Origin: Ostreococcus lucimarinus
Lineage: Eukaryota
Direction: 5' to 3' (one strand)
Assembly (NCBI GenBank): GCA_000092065.1
Contig: CP000595.1
Length of the DNA: 64,000 nt
A program made the position numbers and the translations under genes. A model generated the notes under the pieces. It saw nothing but the letters and a program-made list of their open reading frames with translations, did no database searches and was not told where the DNA came from. Positions within the stretch are counted from its first letter, which is position 1. Each line of letters starts with the position of its first letter. Shown one piece after another: positions 47,701-61,977 of this stretch.

Positions 47701-50700
47701 ACGGTGGCGATTGCTGCCAAGACACGTGCCGGCAAGTCTTTAGTGACGGCGCATATTGCCAGGCGCAAGATTGCCGGGATCACTCAATCTCACCAGTGAC
47801 AGGGCGACCGACATCTGGGTTCTGGAGCTCGTACAACGCCAAGGCGCTCGTCGCTCGGGAACTCTCTGTGGAGTGGAAGGTGACGTTTCCAGTAGATGAC
47901 ACTCTTCCGTTGATTGATGGCGTTCTCACCGGTACCGCGTGCTGCATGCAAGACAAGAGCGGCTTGGACGTGTTGCACGCAAATAAGGGTACATTCGTCG
48001 CGGGTGCGCCGTGCCTGGACGCTGTCTTGACTCGCGACACGAGCTGTTTGCTTCGCGCCGCGCTTACGGCGGACAACGGCGAATTCGTCGTCAAGGAAAA
48101 CCAGCCCGTATCGCTTACGCTCGAATTTGAAGGGAACCCTCGCGGGATGAATTGCACAATCGGCGGCGAATCGGTGACGATGACGCAGACACGCGCCGCG
48201 AGCTCTGGCGTCACCGCGCTGTGGTCAACCACACGGACTTCGGTGAATGCAGTCGACACCGCGATTGCGACGCGCATTGCGGCGTCTGAGGAGCAGAAGC
48301 GACGTCACGAACTTTTGCCCGAGGTTTTCGAATTAAATCTGTGGGCGAATTGTTCACGAGGCGTCACGATTCCGTTTGAGTGTTCCATTTCGGATTGCGG
48401 TGGCAACTTGTTTGAGATTACCGACGCCGTCGACCCGACTTCAGATGTGTGCTTTGACTACGTGCGCCCGGACGCGACCAGCATTGGGCAGACGAGTTCG
48501 AACACGTGCAGCAACGCATACGCCAAAGTTGGCGATACGCTGATACTCAACGTTACGATGGATGCGGACGTTTCCAATCCCACTGCGTACACCCTCGCTG
48601 GCGAAGCGTGCACGTTGAGAACTTTCGGTACGAATGCGTTTACGTGTGACGTCGTCGTGTCGTCGACGACGATTGAAGGACCCGCAAACTTCACGTTTGA
48701 CGGCATCAAAAGCTCTGTGCCCGCGTATCTCGACGCCGTCAACACGAGCTACACTGAACTGAAGACGTTATCTCCAGATGGCGTCGTCACGCTCGGTGGG
48801 GATCGCGTCATCATCGATCGGACTGCGCCGACTTTTGACTCTTTGGCGATGTACAGCCTCGAAGTCGCTAACAAGACGTGTCAGAAGCGGTGTACCGTTC
48901 GCGTCGCCATCGACGCCGCGGAAGAGTTGAGTAGCTGCACGGCAACTATCGGTGGCATCACTGCAAACATCACCGGCACGGGCTCCGAACGCGTGGCGGA
49001 GGCGTACATTGATGAGAACAGTGGTATAGCGGCGGGCGAGATTACCTTCTCCGTCATCTGCCTGGATCTCGCGTGCAACTCGGTGACGACATCGACGCTC
49101 GTTGGTGATACGGACGCCGTGATTTATTCTTTAGACCGGGACATTCCATTGGAAGTCTTGTTCTACAGCGATCGACCGGGGCACTTGGAAATTGGGAACG
49201 AAAACGACTGTCTCATGATGGAGATGAGGTTTCTTCTCGCCGTCGAACTGAAAGCCATCGTCATGGGCAATATTACGAACAACGCATTGAGTCTGTGGAA
49301 CATCACCACAACCGGTGGCGCCTTGGTAGTCCCGGGTACGACCCACACCTATTATCTCATCACTCACTGCATCACGGATGCGTGGGGTACGGAGGACTGG
49401 CCAGTCGTTCCTTGGAGTTTTACGTACGACGATGGATTGCAAGACGTTGTGTGGAACACGACTTTTACGTCTGACGTAAACTTTCCGCGAGTGGTCCGAC
49501 TCGATTTGGAAGACCCAGTCGCGACGTACGTCTACGCCTTCACCACTGGCGCTAATGATCCATCGGCTGGTCTCGGCGACGCGCTGTACTTGGATATCAT
49601 CGCCAGCGAAGCAGTTGTGGCGCCGACGGTGACGTTTGGCGGCGTAACGCTCAACGCCACCGATGTCTCGCAAGTGGGTACGTCTAGCGAGTGGCGCGCG
49701 GGTCCCTACATCGTGAAGAATTCGACGGATGACCCGAACATTCTGAAGGATATCAACGATTGTTTCTTATTCAGCGTGACGCTGAAGGACTTAGTCGATC
49801 ACACATCCATATTGTACTCGCAGCAAGTCAACGCCACGGGCTCGCTCAATTGCGTCACGCAACGCGTTGACATTGATCAAGATGCGCCCACCATCGTTTG
49901 GTTGCAAACTGAGTACGTCACCGCTACCACCGTAGACTTTACCTTTGCCGTAGACGAACTCTCCAACGTCAGCTACGTCGTCTTGCCGAGAGGTGCGGTG
50001 GAGCCGACGCCTTTGGAAGTTCAAGCAGGCACCGGAGCAGCGGGTACTGGCGCTGTGGCCAGCGGTGTTAAGGAATATCTTGGATCATCCACGCCTTCTC
50101 CGGGAGCTGGTGCGGGTGGCAAGGGCCAAGATGTGTTAAACATCACTGGTCTTCTCGCGGGTACGAACTACGACGTATGGTTCGTGCCTTTCGATCGATT
50201 CGGCAACTCCCAAACCGAGGCGCAAAGTCGATGGATACGAACCGTTGGGTTGGACATGCTCATCAACTCGCTTGCGACGCAAGAGGGCGGTTACACGGAT
50301 GTCATTCAGGTGAAGCTCACGCAAGTCCCGACCGCAGATGTTTCGGTGACGATCAGTGAACGCAGTGGTATCGGGAACGTCGTCCTCGTTGATCAGGCGC
50401 TGAGTCTTACGGATTACGTCTCCTCGGTGACGCTAGTCTTCACGCCCATCACGTGGAACGTAGCGCAAGAAGTCGGTGTCAAGGCGGTTGATGACATTTA
50501 TGTCGAAGATCAACACACAGAAGAGTTGAAGTTTGACGTACGATCGCTTGATGTACGCTATGACGCGCTCGTCGATCCAAACCGTACGGTCGTCATCGCA
50601 GATAACGACGAGTGTGGCGTCATCGTGTATGACCCCAACAATCGACCCTTGGAGCGCACTCTCTCGTGCAGCGCGAATGCAGTGATCGCTTTGTTGAACT

Positions 50701-53700
50701 ATTCCGTCGCTGAAGATACGACGGTATACGCAGATATCTACTTGCAAGCGGCGGTGCGAGGCGATGACGTGCGCGTGACGCTGACGAGCTCTGATTTGAC
50801 GCAAATTTCATCTCCAGCGTCCGTCACTCTGACGTTCAACGAAACCAACTACAATTTGGCGCAACGTGTCCCAATCATTCCGGTGTATTCGTGCGTCGCC
50901 GCGCTTGATCGCTACGTTCCGATCGCAGTGAGCGTAGAATCCGCGACGACGTGCGGCGATCTCGTCGTACCAGAAATTCCTGTGTACGTGACAGATTTGC
51001 AAAAGGTTGGATTAGCGTTTACCAAGGCGCAAATCACCGGCCCCCCCGGGAGCAACTACGAGTTTGACATGTATTTAACGTCTCAACCGACATCAGACGT
51101 TCAAGTGTCCTTAGCAACGCTACCAGACGCTTTCGGAGCCGACTTGTACGGCAGCGCGTCGTTCAATTGCGGTGCCCAAGGTCCTGTTTGGACGTTTAGT
51201 GCTGATGAGTGCTCGGTGCCGGTGACTTGCATCGTCACGCTCGTCGGCGACGACACCAAGTGCGGAGATGTGACGTTGCAAGTTGGCGCCAAAGTCACTT
51301 CCTTGGATTCAATGTACAACGGCATCTCGAGTTCGCCGCCGAATATGACCATCCTCGAAACCGCCAACGCCGCGGGATGGTACATTCGAAATGCTGACAA
51401 CACAGAATTCATCGTGACGCCGCCAGATGCGCCAAACGGCACGTTGCCGCTCGAACCGTGGAAGGTGAATGAACAGATTGAAACGGGTATTTACACCATC
51501 ACACCGACTACGGCGTTGTGCAAAACAGTGACCCTTCGACCGTATATTCCAGACACAGATTACGCTCGATACGCCACCATCTCTCCGAGACAGGTGACAC
51601 TTGAGGCTGGATTCTTTGGTCCGACGAAGTTCAAAGTCATCTTCCCGCGTAACTACAACGTGCCCGTGACGAACGACATCGTTCAAATTTGGCACGATGT
51701 GGTGTACGGCACTGATGATCCGGATTACCTCGCATTGAGCCCGAATCTCGGTGGTAGTGCCCTGCCGGTCGAAATCGTCGAGTACGACGTCGCCGGTTTA
51801 TTGCTCGGCAACGGCGCGGAGAACACTGTTCTCATCGATGAGCCGTGCTCGACAGATGTGACGACACAGGTCTCATCTTTGGGATTCACGCTGTCAAGTG
51901 CACCCTCTGCAACTGTCGTCGTTTCGCTCAGCGAAATGAATTACAACGCGACTCAACTCGCGATTCTGAAGGCGAATAAACACCTTGTGTTGGGGACAAC
52001 GTCGCTGAGTTTTACGCCCAACAATTGGAACATTCCGCAGCCGGTGATGGTCTCCGCCATCAGCTATGACAACCTGACGGAAGCCCGCACGGCATATGTA
52101 TGTGGAGATATGACTTCAGATGATGATGTGTATCAAGCACTGAATCAAACGTGCTACCCCGTGCATATTTGTGATTGCTCCGGTTCATGCGGTCTCATCT
52201 CGTTTGATGATCACGCGAATTGTACTTTCGCCGCTGACCAATTAAACAACACGGAGATAACGTTCCCGCCTAGTATGAAGCAACTTTCATCTTGTTGGAA
52301 CATCAGTGCCACCTGTGGCGGTATTCAGGTCGCGAGTTTAAGCGCTGCCGGTCACGATCCGGTCATGACGAACTTTACGACGCTGCCAGATTCTGAAGCG
52401 TACTCGGTGAGTTTGGACAAAGTACAACGGTTATTTTACACCACGCAGTGGTCTGTCATCGATAAACTCGAGCTACCGCTATCGCTAATCGATGGTGGTA
52501 TGCAAGGCTTGACGGACGCTTCTGGTACCTATTGCCTCGGTATCTCATCATCGAGCTTTGTCGTCAACAACACAGCCAATGGTGGCTTGTTTGTTGAAAA
52601 GGCCGCCCCGATGAGCGCCTTTGCGAATTCTTTCGAAATCCTCCCGGCAGCGGCGAATACATTTGATTCGGACGTGTACATCCTTGAGGTGAGAGTTCTT
52701 GCCGGTGCATCGCCGTTGACTGATTCGTATTCGCTCAATTGCACGGATGGAGGCAACTTCTCTGCACCAGGCGGATGTATCATCGGTCCCAGTCTTCGAG
52801 GGTATTTCAATAACGCAACGCAAGTCATGACGTTCACGAACACGGCATATCTCCCGGAAGCAGATTTGGCCAACGCAGCTGGTAGAAAATTACTTGGAAA
52901 GTACCCATACCCATCACAACGCCGTCGCCTGTTGCAGGCACCGGCTGCACCGGCTCCTGCATCGACTTCTCAATTTGTGTGGGCTGTGAACAACATAACG
53001 TTTTCGGACATCAGTCTAGATCCCACCGGTGCGACGCGAATGATGAACACTCGAGTGGTGGATCAGTTCGGGGCCATCGTCGAAGGACCAATTCTAAATA
53101 TCGATACCGAAGGTGTGAACGATCCACCGATTATCGATATCGACTTGCCGCTCATTTACACAGAGAAAGAGAGTCTGACGCTCAACGCACCGCTTCAAGC
53201 CTATGACGTTGACAATTATAATTGGACGCAGTGTGTCGTGAACATCACGGATATCGCAAACAACTTCATGGCTGGAGATACATTCTCGTATAACAAAACG
53301 GCAATCGTCGAATACTATCAGTATTGGAACACATCTTTGCCAGCCGGTTTCGTGGACATTGACGCCACGTTCACCGACTCTCAGCGTACAGTGACTTTCG
53401 CCGGCCTGGCGCCGCCGGCGGCGTACTTGCGTGCGATGCGAAACCTGGTGCTGTTGAATGCTGGACCGGCAATGACAGCGGATGATCGATACATCATGTT
53501 CTGCTGTCAAGATCCGGAAGCGCTCAACAACAAAGGGTGCGGTTTGCAACGTGTTGTGTTCCAACCCGTCAACGACCCCCCGCTAGCTGAGAACAAGATT
53601 GTGTATCTTGCTGATCCTCGCGTCGGAGGGTTAACCGGTGAAACTGTTCCAGGATCAGATCCTGATGGCGATACGTTCACGTTCAATATTTCATGCTTAC

Positions 53701-56700
53701 CGAACAAGGGTGACTTGACGTTCAACACCGCCACCGGACAGTTTGATTATGCCCCGTATCCAAACATGATCGGCGACGACAGATTCGTGTACTTTACGTG
53801 GGATGGATACACCGGTCCAAACGAACGCCCGTTGCAGTCGAAATACGCCACTGTAGAGATTCGCATCGGCAACGGCGAGACGAATCCCGTGGCGCAAGAT
53901 ATTAACGTCGATGTGTGGGAGAACTCTGCTGAGTATTTCACGTTCAGCGCCACCGATGCAGATTCCACCAACACGGAGATGACGAACGATATTCTTCGAT
54001 ATCAAATCTTTGAAGAACCGGAGCTGAATGTTGCGGGTATTCAGCTTGACACTCAGCAAATGAGTGGAGGGAAGCGATATTCCGAAAATGCAACGTTCCA
54101 GTACACGGCGTTCTCGAGTTCTGATCTCGTCAGGCGCGTGTCAGAGCGTATGGCGAACTACGGCACCAACTTCGATTTCAACACTCTTGCGCGAGAAAAT
54201 CATCCGGGATTCAACGTGACGTCCTTCAAATATGTCGCTATCGATTTATCTGGTCGCGTTTCCAACGTCGCAAACGCCTGGGTCTGGGTTCGACTCACCT
54301 CAGAGACGAATTCTCGACCGAGTGCCAACGCGATGACGTTCACCACGCCTGAATCTGTCGGCGTGGCGAGCAATTTCGACACGGCGGATTCCGAATCCCC
54401 GTTGCAACTGAGACACACGCTCCCATCGCTCGCGTTACAGCCGACGCTCGGCGTCGCTGCGCAAGTCGGTATCGCTGCCTCACCCTACGGCAAGGCGTTC
54501 ACATATGAACCGTTTCCATTCTATTACGGCGTTGATGTGTTCGAATACCTCGTCACCGATCCACACGGGTCTACTTCTGATCTCACCACTATCACCGTCA
54601 CGGTCTCGCAAGTCGATCAGCCGCCACAAGGCGCATGCGGAGTGAACTCTACTCTTAAGTCCTCAGCCGATCCGACGTACGATCTCAAAGGACGAACGGC
54701 GGAACTGAGCGTGCTCATGGGTTATCAAATTATCCGCGCCAAGACGATGCGATATTTGATCAATCCCGAGCGAAGAGACTTGGAGTTTTACAATTACTTG
54801 CCCTTTATCAATGATTTGTCCAAGTTTGACAGCGTCATCGATCATCAAAATATATTTTTGTCATGTGGGTCGACTTCAGCTTTGACAACGGCTGCTATTT
54901 ATCACGACCAAGTGACCGCGGTGGCGCTCTTGGCGTACGATGTCGACCAAGCTGTGAACGACACAATACGGTACGTACTAAGTGAACTGCCGACTATAGC
55001 GTCGTCAGATGCAGCACGAGGTACAGCTGGGTACGCTGGTACTCTTTATCGATACGTCGCCCCGAATGGCACATATTACAACTCCACCGGGACGACAGTG
55101 TACTCTTACACATCAGATTCCGTCACCGGACTCACGCCGCTCGCCGCTGGTGATACCATCGGTGACGCCGCGAATGGGGCTGTAATGCTGCTTTTCAAGC
55201 CTCGAGAATACATCCACGGACCAATCACGTTCAAATGGCATGCGGTAGATACAACGACGTCGGCGCGAGGCGACGACGTCGCGATGACAATCAGTGCCAT
55301 GTGCAGAGGAGGTGAAAGCGTCAACGCTGACCATGGAGAAACGTGCGATTTGTGCCCAGTTGGTTCATTCAACTCGGCGAACATAGCCGATCAACAAAGC
55401 TGCGTGCAGTGCCCGGCGGGGAGTTACACCTCCGCCACGGGCTCGACTATTTGCGTGCCATGTCCCGCGGATACGTACGCGAGCACCGCCGGATCGCAAG
55501 TCTGTACACCATGCCCAGCGAACACGCGTTCACCATCAGGAAGCGACGACGTTTCAGATTGCCTGTGCGATATCGGTTTTGTCGTTTCGAACAGCCCGCA
55601 GTGCCATCCTTGCGCGCTCGATCGCGTCAAATGTACCGAACTCGGTCAGTACACACCTCTTCCGTACGATGGATTTTGGCAAGATAGCACAAATGGAAAA
55701 CGAAACCTCACCTGTATCCCGGGCTTGGCTTGTCAAGAGAAGTTTGATAAGGACGAAGTACGCACTGGTGCATGTGCGCAACCTCGGTTCTACGCCAATA
55801 ATGTGACAAATTCTCCCGCGTACGTCGGAGATGGTTGCTCAAAGTGTGCGAAAGATCACTATCGTTACGCGTCCTTCTGCGAAGCGTGTGACCCAGTGCA
55901 AGAAGTAAGAATCTTCTTCGTGATACTGGCGTACTGCGTTGCGCTTTACGCCATGTTCGAACTCGCAACACACCCAGCTATTCCTTCTTTGACGATTTTG
56001 CTGTCATTCACGCAAATCACTGCTCAAATGCAGTACTTTGAAATTCCGTGGCCGAAAGCGCTCGCGCGTTGGATGCAAGTCGCGTCGCTCGCCGTGGCAG
56101 ACTTACAAATCCTTGGTTTAGATTGCGTTTCGACCTGGGACTACTTCACGCGATTCGCGACGACCATGTTCGCACCTTTTGTTTGGGTGTTCGTCCTCGG
56201 CATCGCCATCATTTTACGCTGCTGGAGAGAGATTGCGAATCAAGCTTATGCGAACGTGCAGCGACGGCGACTGATTGAGCGTCGAAGACTGCTCCACGAA
56301 TTTGACGTCGACGCCAAAAAATGGACTGATCTCGCCATCGCTCGCGATGGGTTACCGTTTGATCGCCCCGATTTGAAGGGCAAAGGAGACGACTACAACG
56401 CACTTGAGCTGCATCTGTACGGCAATACTAAAAACGAAGGGTTGCGAAAAAGAGTCTTCAAAGAGGGCGTCGAAGAGTTACGCAAGGCGGATTTGCGGGC
56501 GAAAAGCTCGCAAGAACAGTCCAAGACTGAGCGAAAGCTGAGGCAAACCAAGGATGAAATAGAAGAGCTCGAAAAGCAAAAGGCTGTGAGCGCCAGAATC
56601 ATCCGGGATAACGTCAACCGCGCCATTCCTTCGCTCGTCATCGTCATGTGGTGGGGTTACATGCTCTTGAGCCGCACCGCGATCGAGTACTTTGAATGCA

Positions 56701-58742
56701 AAGATAACACTGAGTCGGTGTTATTGGTGGCGGATCCACAGATAAGATGCAATTTTGATAAGCACTTGCAGTGGAAGCCTGTTGCGTTGATTGGTTTCAT
56801 TCTCTATCCGGTTGGTTTGTTCCTTGCCGCATTTGGCTGGCTTTACGTCCATCGATCAAGCTCAAAGACGCGACCGCGCGTGCACGTCTTGGCCACGAGA
56901 GCGTCTCAGATTGAGAAGGCTCGCGCCGATCAGGTTGAACAATTCAATGCACGTTACGGTATGATGTACAACTGCCTTCGTCCACAATTTTATCTATGGA
57001 TATGTGTTGACCTAGGCAAAAAGTTTTCCATCGTTGGCGTCAAGGTTTTGTTCCCGAACGACATTTTGTTGCAATCATTCGTCTCGATGGTTGTCTTCGT
57101 AACTTTCGGGATCATGAGCACGAGGAATCCTTACGTGAGTGTGAACTTGAACGTAGCGGAAATGCTTGCGACATTCATGAACTCAATCACGCTCATCGCA
57201 GGGTTCTACTTCCAGCTTGGTATCATGGATGACGTGTCTACGCAGATCGCCACGTACGTTATCATCAGTGGTTTGGCTGGCACGACGATTGTCTTGACCG
57301 TCATCGTCGTCGTCGAGTTTTTCCCATGGATGAAGCGCTTGTTTTTCTTGCTCAAGTACAACACGCAAACCGATATTTACAAACCAGATAAAATCGGCAC
57401 GCACGAAAGTGGACCGCAAGGAACTTCGTGCTACATTTTTGCTTCAGATTCAGCGTTCAGATACTGGTGCTGGCGCACAGTTCGTCATCCAGTTTTTGAC
57501 CGTCTCATCACAGCCACCGTGATGATGAGCGTCGGTTGTCTCATTTCGGAGTCTGTCTTATACGACGAAACTTTCACGTCATCTGCGTACGTGCGCATCG
57601 TGTGGTTCAATTCGTTCATGAACGGTATCTTTGTTTTGGAAGCTGCCGTGAAAATCATTGCCATGGGTTTCATCCTTGGCGATGGCGCGTACCTGCGCGA
57701 TACTTTCAACTGCATCGACTTTTTAGTCATCATGTTGCAGTTCATTCTCTTCGCAGTGAACATCACGACGAATGTCACCGGTGCGAGAAGTGCGAGATTT
57801 GTCAAATTCGCGCGCGTGGCGAAGGTCAGAGTCATTCGCGTCTTCCGAAGATTCCTGCAGTTTAACGCCGTCCGCGGCGAGAAATTCCGTCTGATGCTAC
57901 TTGAGGCGAAGGCGGAGGACACGCCCGCGCTCAGCGAGAGCATCGAGCGACTTCGCGTGGTTTTTGAACCACGCAGTGCCGAGACGATGGAATACAACTT
58001 GCGGGTGCTACAGCCCGATGTTTTGCGCGTCGCCCAAGGACTGATTGACGAGCTTTACCAAGAAAAGTTTGATCCTGAATTGGTCGCCGTGTACGAATCT
58101 CAAACCGACGCCGTGCATCAGATGGTGCAGAAGCAATATCACGACATCGTGTACGAATGGCTCGCTTTCGTGGCAGAACCTGGGCAAAAGCGCGCATTTT
58201 TGGCCACGCTGAAGAACATCCGAGACGTCGCCCTGGATCTCGGTCCTGAGGGCATCGCCAAAGAAATGCTTCGTCAAAAGTACGACATCGCCGCCATTCT
58301 CAACACGGCGTTGTACAAGGTTCCAGCCGATGTCAAGACGGACACGCGAGCGTATAAACGAAAGATTGCGAAAGACGCCAAGTCATTCACCAGCACAAAG
58401 GCAACCATCAGCAAACAATTCAACGCCTTCCAGGCTTCCATGCAAAGTGACGACCGCGTCGAAGATGCACTCAACCAGTTGCCGCTGCACTCGGTGGAGG
58501 AAGACAGCGCTCTCGCCAAACGGCGCGCCGAGAACGCGAGCGTGCGCATTCGTAACCGCTCGCTCAATGCGAGTGCAAAAGAGAAAATCATCCAAGATGA
58601 TCTTCAACAGAAAACCTCAGGCGCGGGCGAGCTCCTCGCAGCGGCGTCTAGCGTCGTCGCTGAAGACGACGTCGCTCCCGCCGCGCCGGCACCGGTGAAA
58701 TCGTCCGGATTGTTGGCGCGTTTCCGAAAGAAAAAGACGTGA
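35778..58742 (+). CDS. Giant multidomain membrane protein (7,684-aa ORF; probable start Met 35778): signal peptide, PSI, EGF/tenascin-like repeats, Kringle, very long beta-rich extracellular region with cadherin-like PVNDPP repeats, ephrin-receptor-like Cys repeats, multi-pass TM module, coiled coil, C-terminal voltage-sensor domain (S1-S4) and ~290-aa tail
   Basis: 23-kb stop-free frame. Signal peptide MATATAPTPTRSARTPSAWTRTAMIAIALFAALGGATPG. PSI (GECLDTCGAALTCGECADQSGCGWCHTTGRC). EGF-like (CSSGYGGDGCEKMCPGG...CFCNPGYVGSRC; multiple). Kringle (GKQCQSW...ECRNPSSDAHPWCYV). PVNDPPLAEN / VNDPPIIDID. CDLCPVGSFNS...CVQCPAGSYTS...CVPCPADTYAS...CTPCPANTRS. VSD (see separate feature). Confidence 0.8.
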   Translation: MATATAPTPTRSARTPSAWTRTAMIAIALFAALGGATPGRAAFTADVCYGASWEPTATATKASIGKTVKPVTAVPKEHPLFVDAFAKACLDVGNAAGNTSAATTVRLPKRTNAGNETYWSNAAGACATSPTVSAGQLFYNRAEMGSTLSYADSNTGLEKDKTVRIVFVNDDGKGAHVVVLAGARAATGSSSPEVGLMMEGGSLKNSANVVIEEPRGLTNVVTSGSGCDPSVSSASDCYELDTDLGLGKFRWGSGSDQRGIVIGHVADVNSEFAMKFTLLERIDSVEIGSFDDATFAMSWETIPTASALRGFKIRSATCTNHCALHATCASCATDDACGYCSATKTCTKIDGSCSSGFDVIGECLDTCGAALTCGECADQSGCGWCHTTGRCTAAQLDGSAPQDGNCSAFSVGSSAQCATCPGAVTSTMLPAYVDVDRVSAFCNGRGTCDNITRTCTCSSGYGGDGCEKMCPGGASNPCSRNGLCDSASGSCFCNPGYVGSRCNAATIVGTCECGSAHTYLKSDGTQQRVCSGRLDSSGSCVCLEGWSGVNCTVACAGTLTVGTEVCGGHGTCNVGTGQCDCEPCYSRDATSGLCVQDTCSTCDSSNGVCSCVSGSMQCACRGAFDGYACDQCKCGDHGRCNALSGECECDAGYAGELCERLIEPQPTCANGGTWNAALKRCECAGGYTGTLCDAACTTNPCNDLCSGHGTVNVDGTSCTCFTGFSGSTCNTCATGYGPYPKCGATLANGECTDNIVAYTGTTNVTISGKQCQSWSSQSPFAHTYASSSGSTSNECRNPSSDAHPWCYVDHTAITGSYTRGEPRWEFCSVPTCKSAYVNPQKICGVFGGETVVTFDKDSTSGALNAVSQQALTTTNDAVDKTNCGAMNLTNNDITLHANAAAHGDFVARFAEDSGTGYARRIITHIGLKASVSPAHDSVEVHADGTVKVNSVTKTNDLPYSDGSTGVLCVSDWMPVSSGLASTELLQITISETTVANITKFTACTGCAAQLIVVISVPNSVTSTGICATAGSATSVNFDENAEGSAPWGVGAALNAACGTDTHDPGSVSTVQAKWCDQCQYLGEVYDSCVAQMANEGFNFARAAVIEGCRMAFVAIYGYDRTIPSYLTATASTGATLADTVYPYRSYTPSDVQFKSLSDNRLAFDVLDVTETLPEYIVGTTRTDGSRTRMTGLPREFTGETDTTQVFPFPRIEDSCRTASDIGSTSGYRVYTMNYASATDEALEITMCGSATGTNVGVYTKDFVDIPSADWTHNTTSANGNITFTFTPWIDGLATYEARFEYSLASTKKNVTFDVTRTSANVNIGSFEFYPPTASDSYGSVGFEFSVPSAEAAATVSFTMSPTGTGDSTAANSAFISLTAVFIHAKNYAQASLNYPPFGGFKQVSCANFQAASCGSLKFTATQKTYYIVVSGQKFVSGAYSMQIKKLSADLTTVYTVSSNAATSLVRPLTGLDGAADGTLTPYKVAKYGDNIRVVVRASHAIDRPRITLGNYAVPSSKIVSAGAGAEYSATVTVSASMATSGHITVKVEQASTLTSASYGFKTSTHPLGSDIALVVLDNTAPTVSHAWVVNPSYMLAPSSAPSSCTNLTTSTGKDVNVTAAKYAKAGDYIAVIFTPSENVATIGGTIGGQAATKWVRATAPRDVTLAIDAYKITMSAAYVDAAYALVNDITLSDGVLPFSITFTDAVGNVGTTINSAINSLTGVTASSPLADRLSAARLLYDKSPPRPDSWSLRYASSSEMTGNQGSKPVYYHGFDNVASSAKEYRIGDTLVLTGTWTEYVSRPYGAYMRSSASSGVHVPQSAITITEQGGKLTGKLECMAKEFRPRAQEAVSTAQGFGGTSYVTSTYHKSWKVEANTIDPCDIVGKGALAWSARADCQAEHYAGNSLWIPLWSAWCRHGWGTLGYAVLGGVDPAGNSATALRQVSKSPNNADATVVIASSAVAGDAIIRTPIPIAGKIVPSWMNSVPRGDWTADPKVIEVYIEPQNVRWNEYRRVVKVGDMLQIQFYTDQPVKGVRALIGDDKALPPATHSEVASAMNVERPCSSDPDMQTWLGARGLLALAAEEYNDGSQFSNDDDWFDWLVQTSYNYRQPVPNVPNYPNAAVTCTGFWVQRGLRPNGKRYSVRRLCPNRYYLRRSSFAAQAPLTCSDPNDRIYKATDAYNYWVINFRYVTSHQVVNGDGALQIKWQLTTMDDRVLPTGGGWQTSAAFFTSADTSADVNHLKPTSTDAVGAAFDPAISCGRNADTAFNQAGSAVWAVQDTLAPSCASFVTDGSCASTTVARVANSSGTTFPTVTNPATNVAEHVAVVGDYITLIITFDEHIAAGVYVTLNDGVLTARATKVDKYSATFTFEVTQTLAALNTFLEYKVYNLKDIQEANTATATFTTNVFNAEKIRLQSASELTAFSLTNGACSTTSNNVNNQYAKNGNTVNVSVTLPLPPSSANTVLTIHESKLAGVYVTPPTPTCVGTPNACTITMARTVDSLSADFVDGSVVSWSLVVIGTTKCAHHASSLCITRFKLTSCRPTFASEVVLDFTPPSLTSVRLSEPVTSASLVNGTGQVKVDVVSSEQLYTLTYTLDTRGPLCTYDFGMVSAQSMTLTTDGTLTGTHTKTITATYNSASLHCVLEVICITFVGEDMAGHKLTNPTTCRSFSPTDSEDYPGWFMLHNVGTGPSSVSLARPLGLHCMDSSVDTQACANSASVTSTTLEYGNYLALDVSSGYPIGITDISVDGHSVYAATGFGSSTFQNDNAWTIDCSDLVRDDLCVRFATSATCQAYLCPTCQYAGMCDFSCGYCDSRRAFSKTHKLTLKTTDFGLPATDFTNEVVTVSYRTNPAIAPAATMNSTDTLTYTAPTTSSCAGRCGGTAPSGCECNPTCKSRGTCCADAGHCCTVGLPSTGALNVDGGCLRPNAVTLSVTKESWGVDTKGVRKSNVNRYSTIYIKLTGNKPIDVRRVLIGGVLVPDSDVAIEYNSQTSARQSLNEALVAYGNGNDAQFTSKSAAFAGSLATLPSAAYSWDGNEFSIAFPDIPSTLVATIRVNGANLVPQPDGALTYEVVYRERSGAPYFTDNTELTLTGTGPTWLNPPSISSVSYVLLNSSSTCDLSTPGTPVTAAGNGLTKIEIGHQLRTVVTFSSPVVVRKWTVEGAETNCYGTCHLHGLCKLDPHILPPDEHDEAEYITTWTSCRTFDAKEMTTLENLECGVREFIRAVDRSGNLVMGERWNNLYCFTLPPAIPSQGLIKVRGLTSCYRSTTTKKFGPGCIATIHIEADGEIMEPTVKWWNTATNAYANFPSACVMTATDPTSPSSLVWTLTCAGTAAATFPPSNSYTLQLEVSDVRATDESTFTGTARDTDDGYLGSDKDPIIVDNLAPTPTATVPLSCALVIGSQSTITVTYAVEPSWRPTVSAFGAQVGGVIAQTGALSGFHTVWIAPITVPSDWLGGSPMPFVITNGEDEYGNIDTTSHGNYLSNDNVLTGDVNCSVNVDAPRVTSATCASPSPRVVKPGGSVTVDFSTNVAVTIPSGCVKISGVTVTPTDLGGSKKSWRATATIPSDPPACDGEVALSICAEITDTGNNTGVEVVTQFFGPESEACLIDGTAPVLQLIDFTSDNTYDSKLATVGDTVRLYFEASEMITAPTITLFATATPSATAVETSGPSRRRFPSTVLNAGGTQYATIWTAEYVVDGTTPVGALTWDATGFMDRATNDGTKSACADWNPPSCSIVHAAQTTAQRALEPSINFVGDVVQTFNNFLTTSPSGNVSTLFSCYANSSSTSLSALNLAILKTDLSRHDIVAGGIFQHHLMTAQDLWWQRGGACGTANGLMCRSTCGRCNDAAVVVHRTTTTLTVANVTAGGTAIPGDQCPGGVGTCMCNPTLGDQSEARYIVSTSARDLVSKPTIRFNDTSGTVYTVPEANIVAVSPVMWPTLPTVDCLSESTVRDGVCDPSATLNNRDGCWDGGDCCQDTCRQVFSDGAYCQAQDCRDHSISPVTGRPTSGFWSSYNAKALVARELSVEWKVTFPVDDTLPLIDGVLTGTACCMQDKSGLDVLHANKGTFVAGAPCLDAVLTRDTSCLLRAALTADNGEFVVKENQPVSLTLEFEGNPRGMNCTIGGESVTMTQTRAASSGVTALWSTTRTSVNAVDTAIATRIAASEEQKRRHELLPEVFELNLWANCSRGVTIPFECSISDCGGNLFEITDAVDPTSDVCFDYVRPDATSIGQTSSNTCSNAYAKVGDTLILNVTMDADVSNPTAYTLAGEACTLRTFGTNAFTCDVVVSSTTIEGPANFTFDGIKSSVPAYLDAVNTSYTELKTLSPDGVVTLGGDRVIIDRTAPTFDSLAMYSLEVANKTCQKRCTVRVAIDAAEELSSCTATIGGITANITGTGSERVAEAYIDENSGIAAGEITFSVICLDLACNSVTTSTLVGDTDAVIYSLDRDIPLEVLFYSDRPGHLEIGNENDCLMMEMRFLLAVELKAIVMGNITNNALSLWNITTTGGALVVPGTTHTYYLITHCITDAWGTEDWPVVPWSFTYDDGLQDVVWNTTFTSDVNFPRVVRLDLEDPVATYVYAFTTGANDPSAGLGDALYLDIIASEAVVAPTVTFGGVTLNATDVSQVGTSSEWRAGPYIVKNSTDDPNILKDINDCFLFSVTLKDLVDHTSILYSQQVNATGSLNCVTQRVDIDQDAPTIVWLQTEYVTATTVDFTFAVDELSNVSYVVLPRGAVEPTPLEVQAGTGAAGTGAVASGVKEYLGSSTPSPGAGAGGKGQDVLNITGLLAGTNYDVWFVPFDRFGNSQTEAQSRWIRTVGLDMLINSLATQEGGYTDVIQVKLTQVPTADVSVTISERSGIGNVVLVDQALSLTDYVSSVTLVFTPITWNVAQEVGVKAVDDIYVEDQHTEELKFDVRSLDVRYDALVDPNRTVVIADNDECGVIVYDPNNRPLERTLSCSANAVIALLNYSVAEDTTVYADIYLQAAVRGDDVRVTLTSSDLTQISSPASVTLTFNETNYNLAQRVPIIPVYSCVAALDRYVPIAVSVESATTCGDLVVPEIPVYVTDLQKVGLAFTKAQITGPPGSNYEFDMYLTSQPTSDVQVSLATLPDAFGADLYGSASFNCGAQGPVWTFSADECSVPVTCIVTLVGDDTKCGDVTLQVGAKVTSLDSMYNGISSSPPNMTILETANAAGWYIRNADNTEFIVTPPDAPNGTLPLEPWKVNEQIETGIYTITPTTALCKTVTLRPYIPDTDYARYATISPRQVTLEAGFFGPTKFKVIFPRNYNVPVTNDIVQIWHDVVYGTDDPDYLALSPNLGGSALPVEIVEYDVAGLLLGNGAENTVLIDEPCSTDVTTQVSSLGFTLSSAPSATVVVSLSEMNYNATQLAILKANKHLVLGTTSLSFTPNNWNIPQPVMVSAISYDNLTEARTAYVCGDMTSDDDVYQALNQTCYPVHICDCSGSCGLISFDDHANCTFAADQLNNTEITFPPSMKQLSSCWNISATCGGIQVASLSAAGHDPVMTNFTTLPDSEAYSVSLDKVQRLFYTTQWSVIDKLELPLSLIDGGMQGLTDASGTYCLGISSSSFVVNNTANGGLFVEKAAPMSAFANSFEILPAAANTFDSDVYILEVRVLAGASPLTDSYSLNCTDGGNFSAPGGCIIGPSLRGYFNNATQVMTFTNTAYLPEADLANAAGRKLLGKYPYPSQRRRLLQAPAAPAPASTSQFVWAVNNITFSDISLDPTGATRMMNTRVVDQFGAIVEGPILNIDTEGVNDPPIIDIDLPLIYTEKESLTLNAPLQAYDVDNYNWTQCVVNITDIANNFMAGDTFSYNKTAIVEYYQYWNTSLPAGFVDIDATFTDSQRTVTFAGLAPPAAYLRAMRNLVLLNAGPAMTADDRYIMFCCQDPEALNNKGCGLQRVVFQPVNDPPLAENKIVYLADPRVGGLTGETVPGSDPDGDTFTFNISCLPNKGDLTFNTATGQFDYAPYPNMIGDDRFVYFTWDGYTGPNERPLQSKYATVEIRIGNGETNPVAQDINVDVWENSAEYFTFSATDADSTNTEMTNDILRYQIFEEPELNVAGIQLDTQQMSGGKRYSENATFQYTAFSSSDLVRRVSERMANYGTNFDFNTLARENHPGFNVTSFKYVAIDLSGRVSNVANAWVWVRLTSETNSRPSANAMTFTTPESVGVASNFDTADSESPLQLRHTLPSLALQPTLGVAAQVGIAASPYGKAFTYEPFPFYYGVDVFEYLVTDPHGSTSDLTTITVTVSQVDQPPQGACGVNSTLKSSADPTYDLKGRTAELSVLMGYQIIRAKTMRYLINPERRDLEFYNYLPFINDLSKFDSVIDHQNIFLSCGSTSALTTAAIYHDQVTAVALLAYDVDQAVNDTIRYVLSELPTIASSDAARGTAGYAGTLYRYVAPNGTYYNSTGTTVYSYTSDSVTGLTPLAAGDTIGDAANGAVMLLFKPREYIHGPITFKWHAVDTTTSARGDDVAMTISAMCRGGESVNADHGETCDLCPVGSFNSANIADQQSCVQCPAGSYTSATGSTICVPCPADTYASTAGSQVCTPCPANTRSPSGSDDVSDCLCDIGFVVSNSPQCHPCALDRVKCTELGQYTPLPYDGFWQDSTNGKRNLTCIPGLACQEKFDKDEVRTGACAQPRFYANNVTNSPAYVGDGCSKCAKDHYRYASFCEACDPVQEVRIFFVILAYCVALYAMFELATHPAIPSLTILLSFTQITAQMQYFEIPWPKALARWMQVASLAVADLQILGLDCVSTWDYFTRFATTMFAPFVWVFVLGIAIILRCWREIANQAYANVQRRRLIERRRLLHEFDVDAKKWTDLAIARDGLPFDRPDLKGKGDDYNALELHLYGNTKNEGLRKRVFKEGVEELRKADLRAKSSQEQSKTERKLRQTKDEIEELEKQKAVSARIIRDNVNRAIPSLVIVMWWGYMLLSRTAIEYFECKDNTESVLLVADPQIRCNFDKHLQWKPVALIGFILYPVGLFLAAFGWLYVHRSSSKTRPRVHVLATRASQIEKARADQVEQFNARYGMMYNCLRPQFYLWICVDLGKKFSIVGVKVLFPNDILLQSFVSMVVFVTFGIMSTRNPYVSVNLNVAEMLATFMNSITLIAGFYFQLGIMDDVSTQIATYVIISGLAGTTIVLTVIVVVEFFPWMKRLFFLLKYNTQTDIYKPDKIGTHESGPQGTSCYIFASDSAFRYWCWRTVRHPVFDRLITATVMMSVGCLISESVLYDETFTSSAYVRIVWFNSFMNGIFVLEAAVKIIAMGFILGDGAYLRDTFNCIDFLVIMLQFILFAVNITTNVTGARSARFVKFARVAKVRVIRVFRRFLQFNAVRGEKFRLMLLEAKAEDTPALSESIERLRVVFEPRSAETMEYNLRVLQPDVLRVAQGLIDELYQEKFDPELVAVYESQTDAVHQMVQKQYHDIVYEWLAFVAEPGQKRAFLATLKNIRDVALDLGPEGIAKEMLRQKYDIAAILNTALYKVPADVKTDTRAYKRKIAKDAKSFTSTKATISKQFNAFQASMQSDDRVEDALNQLPLHSVEEDSALAKRRAENASVRIRNRSLNASAKEKIIQDDLQQKTSGAGELLAAASSVVAEDDVAPAAPAPVKSSGLLARFRKKKT
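38025..38275 (+). other. Kringle domain within the 7,684-aa protein
   Basis: GECTDNIVAYTGTTNVTISGKQCQSWSSQSPFAHTY...SNECRNPSSDAHPWCYVDH...EFCSVPTC fits the kringle pattern: C..YRG-like / CQ.W / (F/Y)CRNP / PWC(Y/F) / C...C. Confidence 0.65.
55900..57300 (+). other. Multi-pass TM module of the 7,684-aa protein (shared with the 3,246-aa paralogue) with an intervening charged coiled-coil loop
   Basis: Hydrophobic segments RIFFVILAYCVALYAMF, ASLAVADLQILGLDCVSTWDYF, MFAPFVWVFVLGIAIIL, IPSLVIVMWWGYMLL, VALIGFILYPVGLFLAAFGWLYV, etc. Loop EELRKADLRAKSSQEQSKTERKLRQTKDEIEELEKQKA. Confidence 0.6.
57456..57860 (+). other. Voltage-sensor domain (VIC-superfamily S1-S4) at the C-terminus of the 7,684-aa protein; no S5-pore-S6 follows
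   Basis: HPVFDRLITATVMMSVGCLISE (S1); IVWFNSFMNGIFVLEAAVKIIAMGFILGDGAYLRDTFNCIDFLVIMLQFILFAV (S2-S3); RSARFVKFARVAKVRVIRVFRRF (S4, R/K every third residue). Compare Nav/Cav repeat-I: [31 protein letters not shown]... and S4 ALRTFRVLRALKTIS. The sequence after S4 (FLQFNAVRGEKFRLMLLEAKAEDTPALSE...) is hydrophilic to the stop. Confidence 0.7.
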
Positions 58743-58902
58743 TCGTCATCAAACAAAGTTCAATTATTAATTTACCCCACTAGCGGCGCTTGGGATCACG
58801 ACATTAGCGCCTTGATCCTTGTTATAACGCACCACAGTTATACCGCGCCGACGCGCCGCACACGCCGCCTCGCTCGACGCACCCGATGGCGTGAATCCCG
58901 GA

Positions 58903-61900
58903 ATGTCGCCCCCCACGCTCGACGCCGCGCTTCGTCGCAACGCACGCGAGCGCCCGAGCGCCATCGCGTGCGTCCTCGTCCCGAACGCGCGCGAGAAGAA
59001 CCGAAAGTGCTTCTTCACTTGGGACGAGTTACACGGCGTCGTCGACGCCCTCGCGCGCGTCTTGCGCGCCGACCGCCATCCGCGCGTTCTGAGCTTTTGT
59101 CGCGACGGCGTCGAGGCGTTCGTGGCGCTGCACGCGTGCGCGCGGGCGCGGAAGAGTTTGGTGAACGTGGACGCGGCGACGCCGGCGAGCAGGATTCGGG
59201 ACGTCGCGCGGGACGCGAACGCGACGACGTGTCTGTGCGCGAACGACGGCGATGAAGACTCGGTAAAATCGGTGTTAGGAGAAGACGGTGTCGCGGTGCG
59301 CGTGTGGGAGGTGATTAATGCGGGCGCGGAGGCGATCGAGGCGGAAGAGGACGAGACGCGAGAGGACGACGAAATTTGGATTGCGTACACGAGCGGGACG
59401 ACGGGAAAATGCAAGGGCGCCGCGGCGACGCATCGACGCGCGATGGCGTACGCACGGGCGAAGTGTGAGGTGGAAGAGATCGACGCGTGCTCGCGGGTGT
59501 GCTTGGCGTCGAACGCGACGTTCGATTTGTGGCACGGCGACGCGTGCGCGGCGGCGGCGGCGGGCGCCGCCGTCGTCGTCGCGTCTCGCGCGACTTTTCA
59601 ACACGATTTCGCGAGAGTGTTGCGAGAGGGCGAAGTCACGCACGTGTGTTGCACGCCGACGATGTTCTCGCTGGCGCGACTTCCGCGTGGGATCGTGGAC
59701 GCACCGAAGTTGCGATGCGTATCGCTGGCGGGGGAGCGCATGCGCGAGAGCACAATCGCACTATGGGCCGACGACGTGGCGTTGTACAACGTGTACGGTG
59801 CCACGGAAACGACTGTGGTGCAAACGTACGCAAGAATGCGCAATGCAGAAGACGAAAGCACGAATCGGGCGGGGAAAGCGTACGAAGGATTTGCCAGCGT
59901 GTTCGTCGTGGATGAAATGCGCGAAGGCGAATTGGCGGTGCAATCCTTCGCGCAGAGACGCGGCGTCGAAGGCGAAGTTGCCATCGGCGGTATTTGCGTC
60001 GCAGACGGGTATTTGAACGACCCCGAACGCACGGCACGTGCGTTCGTTCACTCACCATTCGGTACCGTCTATCTCACGGGCGATCGCGGGTACATCGATG
60101 ACGCAGGCGATTTGTATTTGCGCGGTAGACTCGATCGCCAAGTCAAGATTCGCGGTCATCGCGTCGAGTTGGATGAAATCGAAGCCGCGCTTCGTTCGTG
60201 CCCCGCACTATGCGACGACGCCGTCGTGTTCTACGATGCCAATGAGGGAGTGCTGACTTCCCACGCACGAGCAGCTTCGCCGACGTTCGACGCGTCGAGC
60301 GATGCAGATTTATACGCGTTCGCGCTCGAACGCGTCGTCGAGCTACGATTGCCGCGACACATGGTGCCTCGTCGACACGTCTTCATCGAGCACGCGCGAT
60401 GGCCTTTGACTTCGAGTGGAAAAACGAATCGTCAGATACTGCTTCAATGGTTTGCGAGCGGCGAGACGAAGGCGTTTCGACCTAAGCGTGAGAAACCGCA
60501 AGCGGGATTGGAAACAGTCGTCGCGAACGCTTGGGCTGTCGCGCTGGGGCACGGCGACGCGAGCGATATCGGCGCCCTCGACGCGTTCGATGCGCTCGGT
60601 GGAACCTCACTCAACGTTCTCGCAGTTTCAAAAGCGCTGGCGAGCGACGACGGAATCGTGCGCTCGCGCGATACCGCGCGTGGCGAAATTGTGCGCGAAG
60701 CGCGAATTGGTTTACGCGACGGCGAAGCTGCGGCGCTGCTCAACGACGGCGAAGAACCCGCGGCGTGCGCGTTCGACGTCATCGACGGCCCGTTCGCACC
60801 GTGCGAAATATTCGCGAGACCCGTGCTTCGCGATTACGTTGATTATTTGCGAGCGCAAGGTATAGACGCCGACGTGAACGCTCCCGCGTCCACCGCCGTC
60901 GAGCCACAGCGAGATACATCTGCGAATCGTCGCATGCTCGCGGCGTGCGGTCGCGGCGTCGCCCCCGTCGTTCGCGCTTTGCTCGCGACCGGCGTCGAAG
61001 CATCGGGCGAGCACCTTCGAGCCGCCGCCGCGAGCCTCGCCGACGAAGCCGTGGACGTAGTGCAAACTTTACTCGCCGCCGGTGCGGATGCAAGTTCATC
61101 ATCCGCCACAGCCGGTACGCTCGCGACGCACGTCGCCGCCGCTCGCGGGAACTCTGAAATGTTAGAAATGTTGCTCGCCGCCGGCGCTCCAGCGGGAGCG
61201 AAGGACGCGGATAAGCAAACGATTTGTCACTTAGCAGTGCGGAGCGGGGATGTGAGTACCGTGCGCGTCGCGGCAAACGCGTGTAAACACTTGAAGACAC
61301 GCAAAGGTGGCTTGGAGTCGTGGGATCGTTGGAAGCGCACGCCCGCAGCGTGGGCGCTCGTCGCGGGATCGAGTGAAATTTTAGCCGAGTTGCGAGATGC
61401 CGGGGCGAATTTAACATCGCTTGAAACTGACGTCTCCAACGCCTGGGTGCACGGTTCGCTGAGCGCAAAGAGCGAGGTGCAGTTGGCGCATCGCCCGGTT
61501 CGCAAGCGAGGTGCCGCGGCGGAGGTGTTGAGCGCGCTCGCGGCTAGATTGGACGCCGCAAACGTCGAGAGCGAACGTATTGAAGCGGCGACGGCGATTC
61601 GCGAGCTCGTGTGCGCAAACGCAGAGAATCGAGAAAAGGCGCGAACGATCGGTTTGGTGCCAAAACTGTGCGAACTCGCGCGCGATCGTCACTGCGTTGA
61701 AGCCATCGGCGCGTTGAGAAATTTAGCCACCAACACGAGCGCGGCAGGGGCGGCTGGCGACGCCGGAGCTATGGAAATCCTCGGTGATGTCATTCGCGCT
61801 CGTGCTAAATTAAAAGACAGCGAGCTGAGTGCTGACGATAGGCGAGTAGTGTACGCTGCGGCGAGCGCGATGCGCGCGTTGGCGGTGAAGCACGACGCGA

Positions 61901-61977
61901 ATGCCGCGCGATTGCGCGCGTCGAGAGACGTCGCGGACGTCGTCAGTCGATTGTGCGAAGGCATGCGATTAGAGTAG
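58903..61977 (+). CDS. NRPS-like single-module protein: adenylation (AMP-binding) domain + peptidyl-carrier (thiolation) domain fused to ankyrin repeats and armadillo-like repeats
   Basis: Adenylation core motifs: YTSGTTGKCKG (A3), NVYGATETT (A5), GEVAIGGICVADGYLN (A6), YLTGDRG (A7), GRLDRQVKIRGHRVELDEIE (A8), PLTSSGKTNR (A10). Carrier motif DAFDALGGTSLNVLAVS (LGGxS). Ankyrin-type repeats (ATHVAAARGNSEMLEMLLAAGA; TICHLAVRSGDVSTV; TPAAWALVAGSSEILAELRDAGANL). ARM-like C-terminus (IRELVCANAENREKARTIGLVPKLCELA...AIGALRNLA). Start at ATG 58903; the track start is a GTG. Confidence 0.8.
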   Translation: MSPPTLDAALRRNARERPSAIACVLVPNAREKNRKCFFTWDELHGVVDALARVLRADRHPRVLSFCRDGVEAFVALHACARARKSLVNVDAATPASRIRDVARDANATTCLCANDGDEDSVKSVLGEDGVAVRVWEVINAGAEAIEAEEDETREDDEIWIAYTSGTTGKCKGAAATHRRAMAYARAKCEVEEIDACSRVCLASNATFDLWHGDACAAAAAGAAVVVASRATFQHDFARVLREGEVTHVCCTPTMFSLARLPRGIVDAPKLRCVSLAGERMRESTIALWADDVALYNVYGATETTVVQTYARMRNAEDESTNRAGKAYEGFASVFVVDEMREGELAVQSFAQRRGVEGEVAIGGICVADGYLNDPERTARAFVHSPFGTVYLTGDRGYIDDAGDLYLRGRLDRQVKIRGHRVELDEIEAALRSCPALCDDAVVFYDANEGVLTSHARAASPTFDASSDADLYAFALERVVELRLPRHMVPRRHVFIEHARWPLTSSGKTNRQILLQWFASGETKAFRPKREKPQAGLETVVANAWAVALGHGDASDIGALDAFDALGGTSLNVLAVSKALASDDGIVRSRDTARGEIVREARIGLRDGEAAALLNDGEEPAACAFDVIDGPFAPCEIFARPVLRDYVDYLRAQGIDADVNAPASTAVEPQRDTSANRRMLAACGRGVAPVVRALLATGVEASGEHLRAAAASLADEAVDVVQTLLAAGADASSSSATAGTLATHVAAARGNSEMLEMLLAAGAPAGAKDADKQTICHLAVRSGDVSTVRVAANACKHLKTRKGGLESWDRWKRTPAAWALVAGSSEILAELRDAGANLTSLETDVSNAWVHGSLSAKSEVQLAHRPVRKRGAAAEVLSALAARLDAANVESERIEAATAIRELVCANAENREKARTIGLVPKLCELARDRHCVEAIGALRNLATNTSAAGAAGDAGAMEILGDVIRARAKLKDSELSADDRRVVYAAASAMRALAVKHDANAARLRASRDVADVVSRLCEGMRLE

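Follow-up and report, generated by a model that had tools for sequence, protein, structure and literature searches.

The 2024 review "Voltage sensors" covers voltage-gated channels, Hv1, TMEM266, SLC9C1 and the voltage-sensing phosphatases (VSPs) (PMC13095418). Hv1 and TMEM266 are S1-S4 proteins that lack a pore domain, and in SLC9C1 the cytosolic end of S4 continues into, and is embedded in, intracellular helices (PMC13095418). Here we describe an S1-S4 voltage-sensor domain (VSD) encoded in a 64-kb stretch of Ostreococcus lucimarinus DNA (64,000 nucleotides of contig CP000595.1, assembly GCA_000092065.1; this whole stretch is called the window), for which a prediction made from the sequence alone (the original prediction) had proposed a pore-less sensor at the C-terminus of a giant adhesion-like receptor. 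The VSD lies in a protein of 7,684 amino acids (aa), between a multi-pass membrane core and a conserved hydrophilic tail that is probably cytosolic, and no canonical pore domain follows it.

SLC9C1 is the closest analogue in assembly, with a multi-pass effector followed by S1-S4 and then by a cytosolic regulatory domain. However, SLC9C1 has no giant ectodomain, and Pfam finds neither Na_H_Exchanger nor a domain that binds cyclic nucleotides (CNBD) in the Ostreococcus protein, whose upstream domain instead appears PF06011-like; membership in the SLC9C1 (sNHE) type was therefore ruled out. VSPs carry a polybasic linker after S4, and the giant protein resembles them (Ci-VSP, TPTE) in that its VSD lacks a pore and is followed, immediately behind S4, by a polybasic stretch and next by a cytosolic domain. 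Its tail, however, contains no phosphatase or C2 domain, and VSPs have no transmembrane (TM) domain or ectodomain upstream of the sensor; with no Pfam or NCBIfam match in the tail, a voltage-sensing phosphatase was likewise ruled out. Hv1 is characterized by a mid-S1 Asp that provides selectivity and by an RxWRxxR motif in S4. Small size, three arginines in S4 and a coiled coil typify Hv1 and TMEM266, whereas the giant protein has five in-register charges in a very different context. Its S1 (PVFDRLITATVMMSVGCLISESVLY) lacks a mid-helix acidic residue, its S4 pattern differs and no Hv1 match was found in the PDB, which excludes membership in this type.

The likeness to PKD1 is one of architecture only, comprising a huge adhesion-like ectodomain, and a multi-pass C-terminus that a large cytosolic loop interrupts and whose final block is akin to a 'TRP-like' family. 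PKD1-type membership was ruled out by domain content, as no REJ, GPS/GAIN, PLAT or PKD_channel (PF08016) domain was found at E ≤ 0.01 in the whole protein or at E ≤ 10 in its C-terminal 1,084 aa; in addition, the last TM helix of PKD1 is not followed by an inserted, charged sensor of the S4 type. With fungal Pkd2 and Flc1-3 (PF06011) the protein shares an extracellular N-terminal domain, a multi-pass core and a cytosolic tail, but it has no TRP_N/ML-like domain and its ectodomain is ~20 times larger. To our knowledge, no VSD has been reported in fungal Pkd2/Flc members. The comparison with Hv1, VSP/TPTE and PKD1 that accompanied the original prediction as a check thus places the protein in none of these groups.

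A Cav/Nav-type voltage-sensor domain in a giant protein

The segment at 57456-57860 (frame 1) translates to exactly the peptide originally predicted to be a voltage sensor, and constitutes aa 7257-7391 of one 23-kb open reading frame (ORF) that runs without interruption (Table 1). This single ORF and the collinear orthologs described below agree with the prediction that the VSD is in frame with the 7,684-aa protein. In the profile search proposed as a check, Pfam PF00520 (Ion_trans) scored the segment at 47-55 bits (cut-off 25; E 7.5e-15 to 2e-12), with an alignment spanning profile positions 1-112 of 241 only, the S1-S4 half, and orthologs scored 62-71 bits. A phmmer search of the PDB with the VSD matched Cav, Nav and CatSper chains only, the best single-domain matches being Cav3.1 repeat III (E 9e-13), Cav2.3 repeat I (3.6e-12) and Cav2.3 repeat III (7e-12), and no Hv1, VSP, SLC9C1 or TMEM266 chain was found at E ≤ 1. 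Repeats I and III of Cav (Cav2.x, Cav3.x) and Nav channels are the best sequence matches (E ~1e-12 per domain), and the similarity includes the pre-S1 helix, in which the alignments to Cav2.x repeats I/III and Cav3.1 repeat III begin. Shared features comprise S2 F-x-x-E-x-x-x-K, the signature KIIA.GF...YLRD..N..DF, the S3 Asp and R/K triplets in S4. Unlike Cav and Nav channels, the giant protein has a single repeat without S4-S5 linker or S5-P-S6, and its VSD stands after the likely effector, inside a receptor-like protein.

The S2-S3 signature (KIIAMGFILGDGAYLRDTFNCIDF) is present as predicted, except that F replaces the usual W of its 'WN' motif. The charge-transfer centre is complete, with an aromatic and an acidic residue in S2 (F7315, E7318) and an Asp in S3 (D7344). 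S4 is strongly basic, as had been noted, although the eight basic residues at i+3 spacing originally counted are in fact nine, only five of which (R7367 to K7379) are in one strict i+3 register; these exceed four basic residues at every third position and are followed, after a +2 step, by R7381 and then by R7384, R7387 and R7388. The S3-S4 loop carries at least one N-x-T/S sequon in five of six aligned Ostreococcus-type sequences, which fits an extracellular and possibly glycosylated loop.

An AlphaFold2 (AF2) model of the VSD and tail, built from 16 sequences, has an overall predicted local distance difference test (pLDDT) score of 63, rising to 76-85 over pre-S1 to S3; it supports the VSD fold alone and is not reliable for S4 or for contacts between VSD and tail. 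Every one of the top PDB matches that Foldseek listed for this model is a voltage-gated cation channel; Nav, Cav, CatSper and related bacterial channels (NavAb/NavMs/CavAb) predominate, alongside Kv/KCNQ and TPC1. The Ion_trans score, the Cav/Nav/CatSper matches and the AF2/Foldseek results agree, confirming at the level of sequence and predicted fold that the segment is a true S1-S4 VSD of the Cav/Nav type.

Absence of a canonical pore after S4

S3 is the last hydropathy peak of the whole protein. No S5-P-S6 was found after S4, as the Ion_trans match ends at profile position 112 and the remaining 295 aa (~290 in the original prediction, which is upheld on this point) contain no hydrophobic segment. 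In orthologs, the KD-19 maximum after S4 is 0.46-1.04, and the ORF stops 253-302 aa beyond S4 in every clade. A pore exon further downstream was ruled out by three findings: the next ORF on the 3' side (58891..61977) encodes an unrelated AMP-binding and ankyrin protein, the stop position is fixed, and the downstream gene varies between clades, being the same in a 98%-identical strain and a glucan-water-dikinase gene on the opposite strand in a clade of ~66% identity. Since the stop position is kept even though the downstream gene differs, a spliced-on pore exon is very unlikely. These sequence comparisons support the absence of a canonical pore domain after the VSD, both in the ORF and downstream of it. 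In addition, no pore-only gene adjoins the VSD gene in any clade examined. The tail itself has no match in Pfam, NCBIfam or the PDB by sequence and profile searches; its conserved helical blocks (aa 7405-7462 and 7484-7519, the second with a YEWLAF motif) are modelled by AF2 as helices with pLDDT 62-84.

A multi-pass core between ectodomain and sensor

The original prediction had the VSD simply terminating an ectodomain, which proved incorrect. Approximately nine additional membrane helices (aa 6740-7212, by hydropathy) separate the ectodomain from S1, arranged in two blocks, modA and modB, with a charged loop of ~130 aa between them that AF2 models as helical with low confidence. modA matches a 3,246-aa paralog encoded in the window, for which BLASTP gave E 1e-17 across the Cys-rich part and the first TM block, and further family members by phmmer; modB matches the relatives P0059, P0100, P0078, P0139, P0174 and others at E 1e-10 to 1e-25 (phmmer). 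A Cys pair (C7004/C7021) in the E-F loop of modB, probably on the extracellular side, is invariant across family members. We infer that the core comprises nine TM helices, namely A, one of B or C, D and E-J. The signal-like segment near the N-terminus, the E-F Cys pair, the positively charged F-G and post-J segments and the N-x-T sequons between S3 and S4 together suggest that the ectodomain lies outside and that the pre-S1 helix, the end of S4 and the tail lie inside.

The core of the window protein has no match in Pfam, PF06011 included (none at E ≤ 1), and a profile of the core found nothing significant in the PDB, and hence no solved structure. PF06011 ('TRP') is a putative channel family that contains fungal Pkd2, Flc1-3 and TrpR. 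It was matched by nine of the 12 homologous cores scanned as excised modB segments (best E 2.3e-10), mostly on their last four helices, and by full-length P0174 (31.6 bits, above the GA of 28.5), to which the window core is related at E 9e-13 (phmmer). The window core thus appears to be a distant relative of the fungal Pkd2/Flc family through its relatives only. As the relatives' core is PF06011-like, the description of the protein as pore-less stands for the canonical S5-P-S6 but not unconditionally, and a different, Pkd2/Flc-like putative conductance may sit upstream of the sensor.

A green-algal family with and without the sensor

Relatives were collected by an exhaustive HMMER search with the last 984 aa, which also matched thousands of channel VSDs. 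Word-indexed homolog searches, which are not exhaustive, returned two proteins for the VSD alone and 19 for the family profile, so that the resulting alignment remained shallow. By its sequence, the giant and probably type-I-like surface protein is a member of a green-algal family with a Cys-rich EGF/cadherin-like/Ephrin_rec_like ectodomain, a multi-pass core and a helical cytosolic tail; it has the Cys-rich module, modA/modB, the Cys pair and the tail of this unnamed 'Ephrin_rec_like + multi-pass core + EWLA tail' family. Core, VSD and tail occur together in P0059 (6,608 aa, 28% identity) and in the fragments P0062, P0069 and P0071, of which P0069 takes in the end of the core and the other two begin at or just before the VSD. 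Core and tail without a VSD are found in P0078 (from the trebouxiophyte [Myrmecia] bisecta), P0093 (from the prasinophyte Cymbomonas), P0100, P0139, P0174 and others, and also in the window itself, where the paralog contains Big_9, Cadherin_4 and Ephrin_rec_like but no Ion_trans by Pfam. Named family members are KAK9818094 of [Myrmecia] bisecta and KAK3279970 of Cymbomonas.

Members with and without a VSD have homologous tails that share a (Y)EWLA(F/L) block (hhalign probability 96.7%, E 4.5e-10; variable inserts in the VSD-less tails were trimmed by eye beforehand). Because VSD-less members exist, the VSD reads as an inserted Cav-derived module, and the simplest history suggested by these sequences is the insertion of a Cav-type S0-S4 module between the last core helix and the tail. 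In Mamiellales, the module (pre-S1 to S4) looks as if copied from a four-domain channel of the Cav/Nav type, namely from its repeat I or III. Four inserted helices being an even number, the tail would have remained cytosolic.

The VSD-bearing homologs found are all metagenome proteins (JGI, ENA, Logan) without informative names, and the relatives found in NCBI and UniRef are VSD-less only; giant genes of this family appear to be missing from annotated reference proteomes. Among the metagenome proteins, P0010 (a Logan contig, 104 aa) is a VSD copy dominated by A>V, T>I, R>C, H>Y and S>F/L changes, and looks as if it were C-to-T converted, for example through assembly of a bisulfite-treated library.

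Conservation across lineages

A scan of metagenome contigs recovered 44 loci. At least six Ostreococcus-like clades have collinear orthologs in which VSD, tail and stop are identically placed, and so do Micromonas and lineages further removed. In more than 15 independent short-read contigs, drawn from at least seven clades, a single clean ORF spans core, VSD and tail; upstream, it is free of stops for 1,000 codons or more, and after S4 it encodes no TM segment. The Ostreococcus-like clades are 99, 68, 66 (two sub-clades), 62 and 60% identical to the VSD-plus-tail query from the window (contig GC 0.56-0.62), and an additional clade of 36% identity (contig GC 0.69-0.70) has the same VSD ORF layout. 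The longest comparisons are provided by L005, from a strain of the same species (98% identity, covering aa 3944-7684), by L004 from Micromonas (32-36% identity, aa 3988-7525) and by L003 (24-28% identity, aa 1424-7348, in one frame, GC 0.66). L004, a 449-kb contig (JGI 3300046169), was assigned to Micromonas because its neighbouring light-harvesting complex (LHC) protein has the same sequence as a "Micromonas pusilla" protein of MMETSP; it shows partial downstream synteny (Pyr_redox_2, ferredoxin) with the Ostreococcus loci L001 and L005. L003 originates from JGI sample 3300016647, which may be a culture transcriptome; in that case it would document the fusion at the mRNA level in a distant lineage.

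Across 10 lineages (24-69% identity), F7315, E7318, K7322, N7341, D7344 and R7370 (R2 of S4) are invariant, as is the Y.R..FN motif of S2-S3, and the S4 positions R1, K3 and R4 are occupied by R or K throughout. Every lineage examined retains the +2 step that shifts the register beyond the fifth S4 charge. Between clades, the proportion of nonsynonymous differences in the VSD (pN 0.17-0.45) is far below that of synonymous ones (pS 0.58-0.80), indicating purifying selection. In close pairs, for which counts are small, dN/dS is 0.34-1.2 for the VSD, 0.08-0.30 for the core, 0.15-0.35 for the tail and 0.13 for the ectodomain.

Two side observations concern individual contigs. In L005 (10001-11134, P0242, compared with window positions 57489-57860), ~10 of ~120 VSD residues differ despite the 98% identity of the ectodomain, and several of these states equal those of the 66% clade, a pattern suggesting that the VSD evolves rapidly or as a mosaic, or that it has recombined. 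Two ENA scaffolds of the ~66% clade each contain one in-frame TGA, which replaces a W in the cytosolic loop of L002 (codon 603, frame 2) and an R after TM F in L006 (codon 604, frame 2); the sites differ, and L001, L022 and L023 of the same clade have neither stop. These codons could be rare nonsense alleles or base errors. As other contigs of the clade are intact, pseudogenization or recoding as a general feature was rejected.

Possible function of the sensor and alternative explanations

The VSD probably senses voltage and in turn acts on either the tail or the membrane core, in the manner of SLC9C1 or VSP. Its likely partner is the multi-pass core together with the conserved cytosolic tail, rather than the ectodomain as such. 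In the proposed mechanism, S4 would carry the gating charges and shift with membrane potential. A short conserved polybasic extension (R7381 to R7388) and a short linker would join it to the tail, which in VSD-less relatives would hang directly from the core; S4 movement would therefore be expected to reposition the tail. The repositioned tail could in turn alter its own signalling or the activity of the PF06011-like core, perhaps a Ca2+-permeable or mechanosensitive conductance. The logic would resemble that of SLC9C1 (transporter, VSD, cytosolic domain) and VSP (VSD, polybasic linker, enzyme), not that of an S4-S5 linker and pore. More tentatively, the VSD might gate or tune a non-canonical conductance of the PF06011 type in a giant receptor of the adhesion type, or else this receptor's signalling in the cytosol.

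Several findings weigh against a working sensor coupled in this way. In the AF2 model of VSD and tail, pLDDT over S4 itself is low (49-56), and a model of the C-terminal 955 aa from a seven-sequence alignment reached a mean pLDDT of 34 and was not used. The TM count and sidedness of the core are based on hydropathy, positive-inside reasoning and the Cys pair, not on a topology predictor. The PF06011 link of the window protein is transitive, since its own core reaches no PF06011 score, and the channel nature of PF06011 proteins is still debated. The 98%-identical strain has T in place of K7379, and the VSD is the least constrained and fastest-evolving module in close pairs, albeit with small counts.

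The best surviving alternative holds that the VSD is a relic, a Cav-derived four-helix bundle kept as a structural or anchoring spacer between core and tail without voltage sensing. Such a relic could explain why dN/dS is raised in three independent close comparisons (0.84, 0.85 and 1.2), why K7379T is polymorphic in S4 and why F stands for the usual W in S2-S3, and family members without a VSD, the neighbouring paralog included, evidently work without one. We nevertheless regard it as unlikely, because the invariant positions are charge-transfer residues (S2 F/E/K, S3 N/D and S4 R2) and not mere hydrophobic packing positions, R1, K3 and R4 of S4 remain R or K, and Ostreococcus, Micromonas and three lineages further removed all preserve the S4 charge pattern together with its register shift, with pN far below pS between clades. 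The high dN/dS of close pairs was read as lipid-facing residues turning over fast while the functional core stays fixed.

It is considerably less probable that the VSD itself conducts, in an Hv1-like manner or through an omega-current, or that it recruits a separately encoded pore subunit in trans. The appeal of this idea lies in the general precedent that isolated VSDs conduct, as in Hv1 (PMC13095418), with no specific sequence support in this protein. Against conduction stand the lack of Hv1 or VSP chains among the PDB matches at E ≤ 1, an S1 without a mid-membrane acidic residue of the Hv1 type, and five in-register S4 charges rather than the three of the RxWRxxR motif, while the trans-acting subunit is opposed by the lack of an adjoining pore-only gene in any clade. 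Finally, an artefact, in which a wrongly joined ORF, an overlooked intron or stop or a misassembly attached the VSD of a separate channel gene whose pore exons lie elsewhere, is scarcely credible: the single in-frame TGA upstream of the VSD in L002 and L006 and the frameshifts in the long-read contigs L001, L004 and L005 would fit it, but the two stops lie at different codons and are absent from L001, L022 and L023, the short-read contigs of at least seven clades have a clean ORF, the stop position is fixed though downstream genes differ, and the homology of the post-S4 tail to that of VSD-less relatives argues that the reading frame after S4 is the family's own.

Ectodomain and genomic neighbourhood

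Of the EGF/Kringle/cadherin-like composition originally ascribed to the ectodomain, the EGF and Big_9/cadherin-like parts were recovered by Pfam (Table 1), whereas no Kringle was matched in the ectodomain at E ≤ 1. The Ephrin_rec_like repeats directly precede the membrane region, and their position is equal in the paralog and family members. By eye, a somatomedin-B-like motif (SCAGRCGG...CxCNPTCKSRGTCCADAGHCC) and a Notch/LNR-like motif (DGVCDPSATLNNRDGCWDGGDCC) can be recognized within window positions 43500-47900 (aa ~2620-2660 and ~3700-3760); the two segments scanned for them had no Pfam match at E ≤ 1, and the distant homolog P0059 repeats both motifs.

The other ORFs of the window include a retinoblastoma homolog, Vps41 and acetolactate synthase, a eukaryotic content. 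Two window proteins share 90%-identity clusters with proteins of Ostreococcus lucimarinus CCE9901, and one of these clusters additionally contains an O. mediterraneus protein, in agreement with an Ostreococcus source. The VSD-less paralog lies head-to-head with the giant gene, and the 56 bp (35632-35687) between their divergent start codons suggest a shared bidirectional promoter for the two giant paralogs. These genes (28000-34000 and 38000-58000) are markedly GC-poorer (0.50-0.57) than the flanking genes (0.60-0.68). Another putative Cys-rich surface protein is encoded nearby, by a 698-aa ORF with a Furin-like_2 Cys-rich repeat (16242-18338, minus strand).

Table 1. Features of the giant gene and its paralog in the window
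Feature	Window coordinates	Residues (aa)	Strand	Evidence and remarks
Giant receptor-like protein ORF	35688..58742	7,684 aa in total	+	ORF list and translation; stop codon included in coordinates
Hydrophobic N-terminal signal/anchor segment AMIAIALFAALGGATPGRA	35844..35900	53-71	+	read from sequence; putative secretory role
EGF-like repeat region	37203..38177	~506-830	+	Pfam EGF_Teneurin, E 1.3e-14, 7 stretches; also EGF_2
Big_9/cadherin-like domain	53556..53816	~5957-6043	+	Pfam PF17963 (28.9 bits), PF17803, PF17892
Ephrin_rec_like (GCC2/GCC3) Cys-rich repeats	55329..55448	~6548-6587	+	Pfam PF07699, 36.1 bits (cut-off 23.1)
TM block modA (TM A, helices B and C, TM D)	55905..56225	6740-6846	+	hydropathy, phmmer, BLASTP
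Long charged coiled-coil-like loop	56226..56621	6847-6978	+	K/R/E-rich; probably cytosolic
TM block modB (TM E-J)	56622..57323	6979-7212	+	homologous to PF06011-like core of VSD-less relatives
Pre-S1 cytosolic helix SCYIFASDSAFRYWCWRTVRH	57426..57488	7247-7267	+	as in Cav/Nav repeats I/III; AF2 pLDDT ~80
S1	57489..57563	7268-7292	+	start of Ion_trans alignment; hydropathy; AF2 helix
S2	57588..57671	7301-7328	+	N7308; charge-transfer-centre F7315 and E7318; K7322
S3	57708..57758	7341-7357	+	N7341, D7344
S3-S4 loop NITTNVTG	57759..57782		+	two N-x-T sequons; probably extracellular
S4	57783..57854	7366-7389	+	R7367, R7370, K7373, R7376, K7379, R7381, R7384, R7387, R7388
Hydrophilic tail, probably cytosolic	57855..58739	295 aa	+	two conserved helical blocks; no TM segment
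VSD-less family paralog	25891..35631	3,246 aa in total	-	head-to-head with giant gene; context, not part of the gene

Novelty and biological significance

No account of this architecture emerged from literature searches on Ostreococcus voltage-sensing domains and polycystins or on voltage sensors that are pore-less or fused. The architecture is also absent from the 2024 review (PMC13095418), and with the VSD-bearing homologs all unnamed, the arrangement can be regarded as undescribed, as the original prediction had proposed. Few cases are known in which an S1-S4 sensor controls something besides a canonical pore, and each has changed the understanding of voltage sensing. The adjoining VSD-bearing and VSD-less paralogs constitute a natural experiment within one genome, and gene targeting has been reported in Ostreococcus. 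If the sensor works, a Cav-type VSD placed between a Pkd2/Flc-like core and a conserved cytosolic domain would represent a new coupling partner, and the protein would form a further class of VSD-coupled proteins in addition to voltage-gated channels, VSP, Hv1/TMEM266 and SLC9C1. Moreover, it would provide the first direct link of membrane potential to a cell-surface receptor or mechanosensor, occurring in some of the ocean's most abundant picoeukaryotes, and would point to electrical signalling in a ~1-µm, wall-less, non-flagellate alga.

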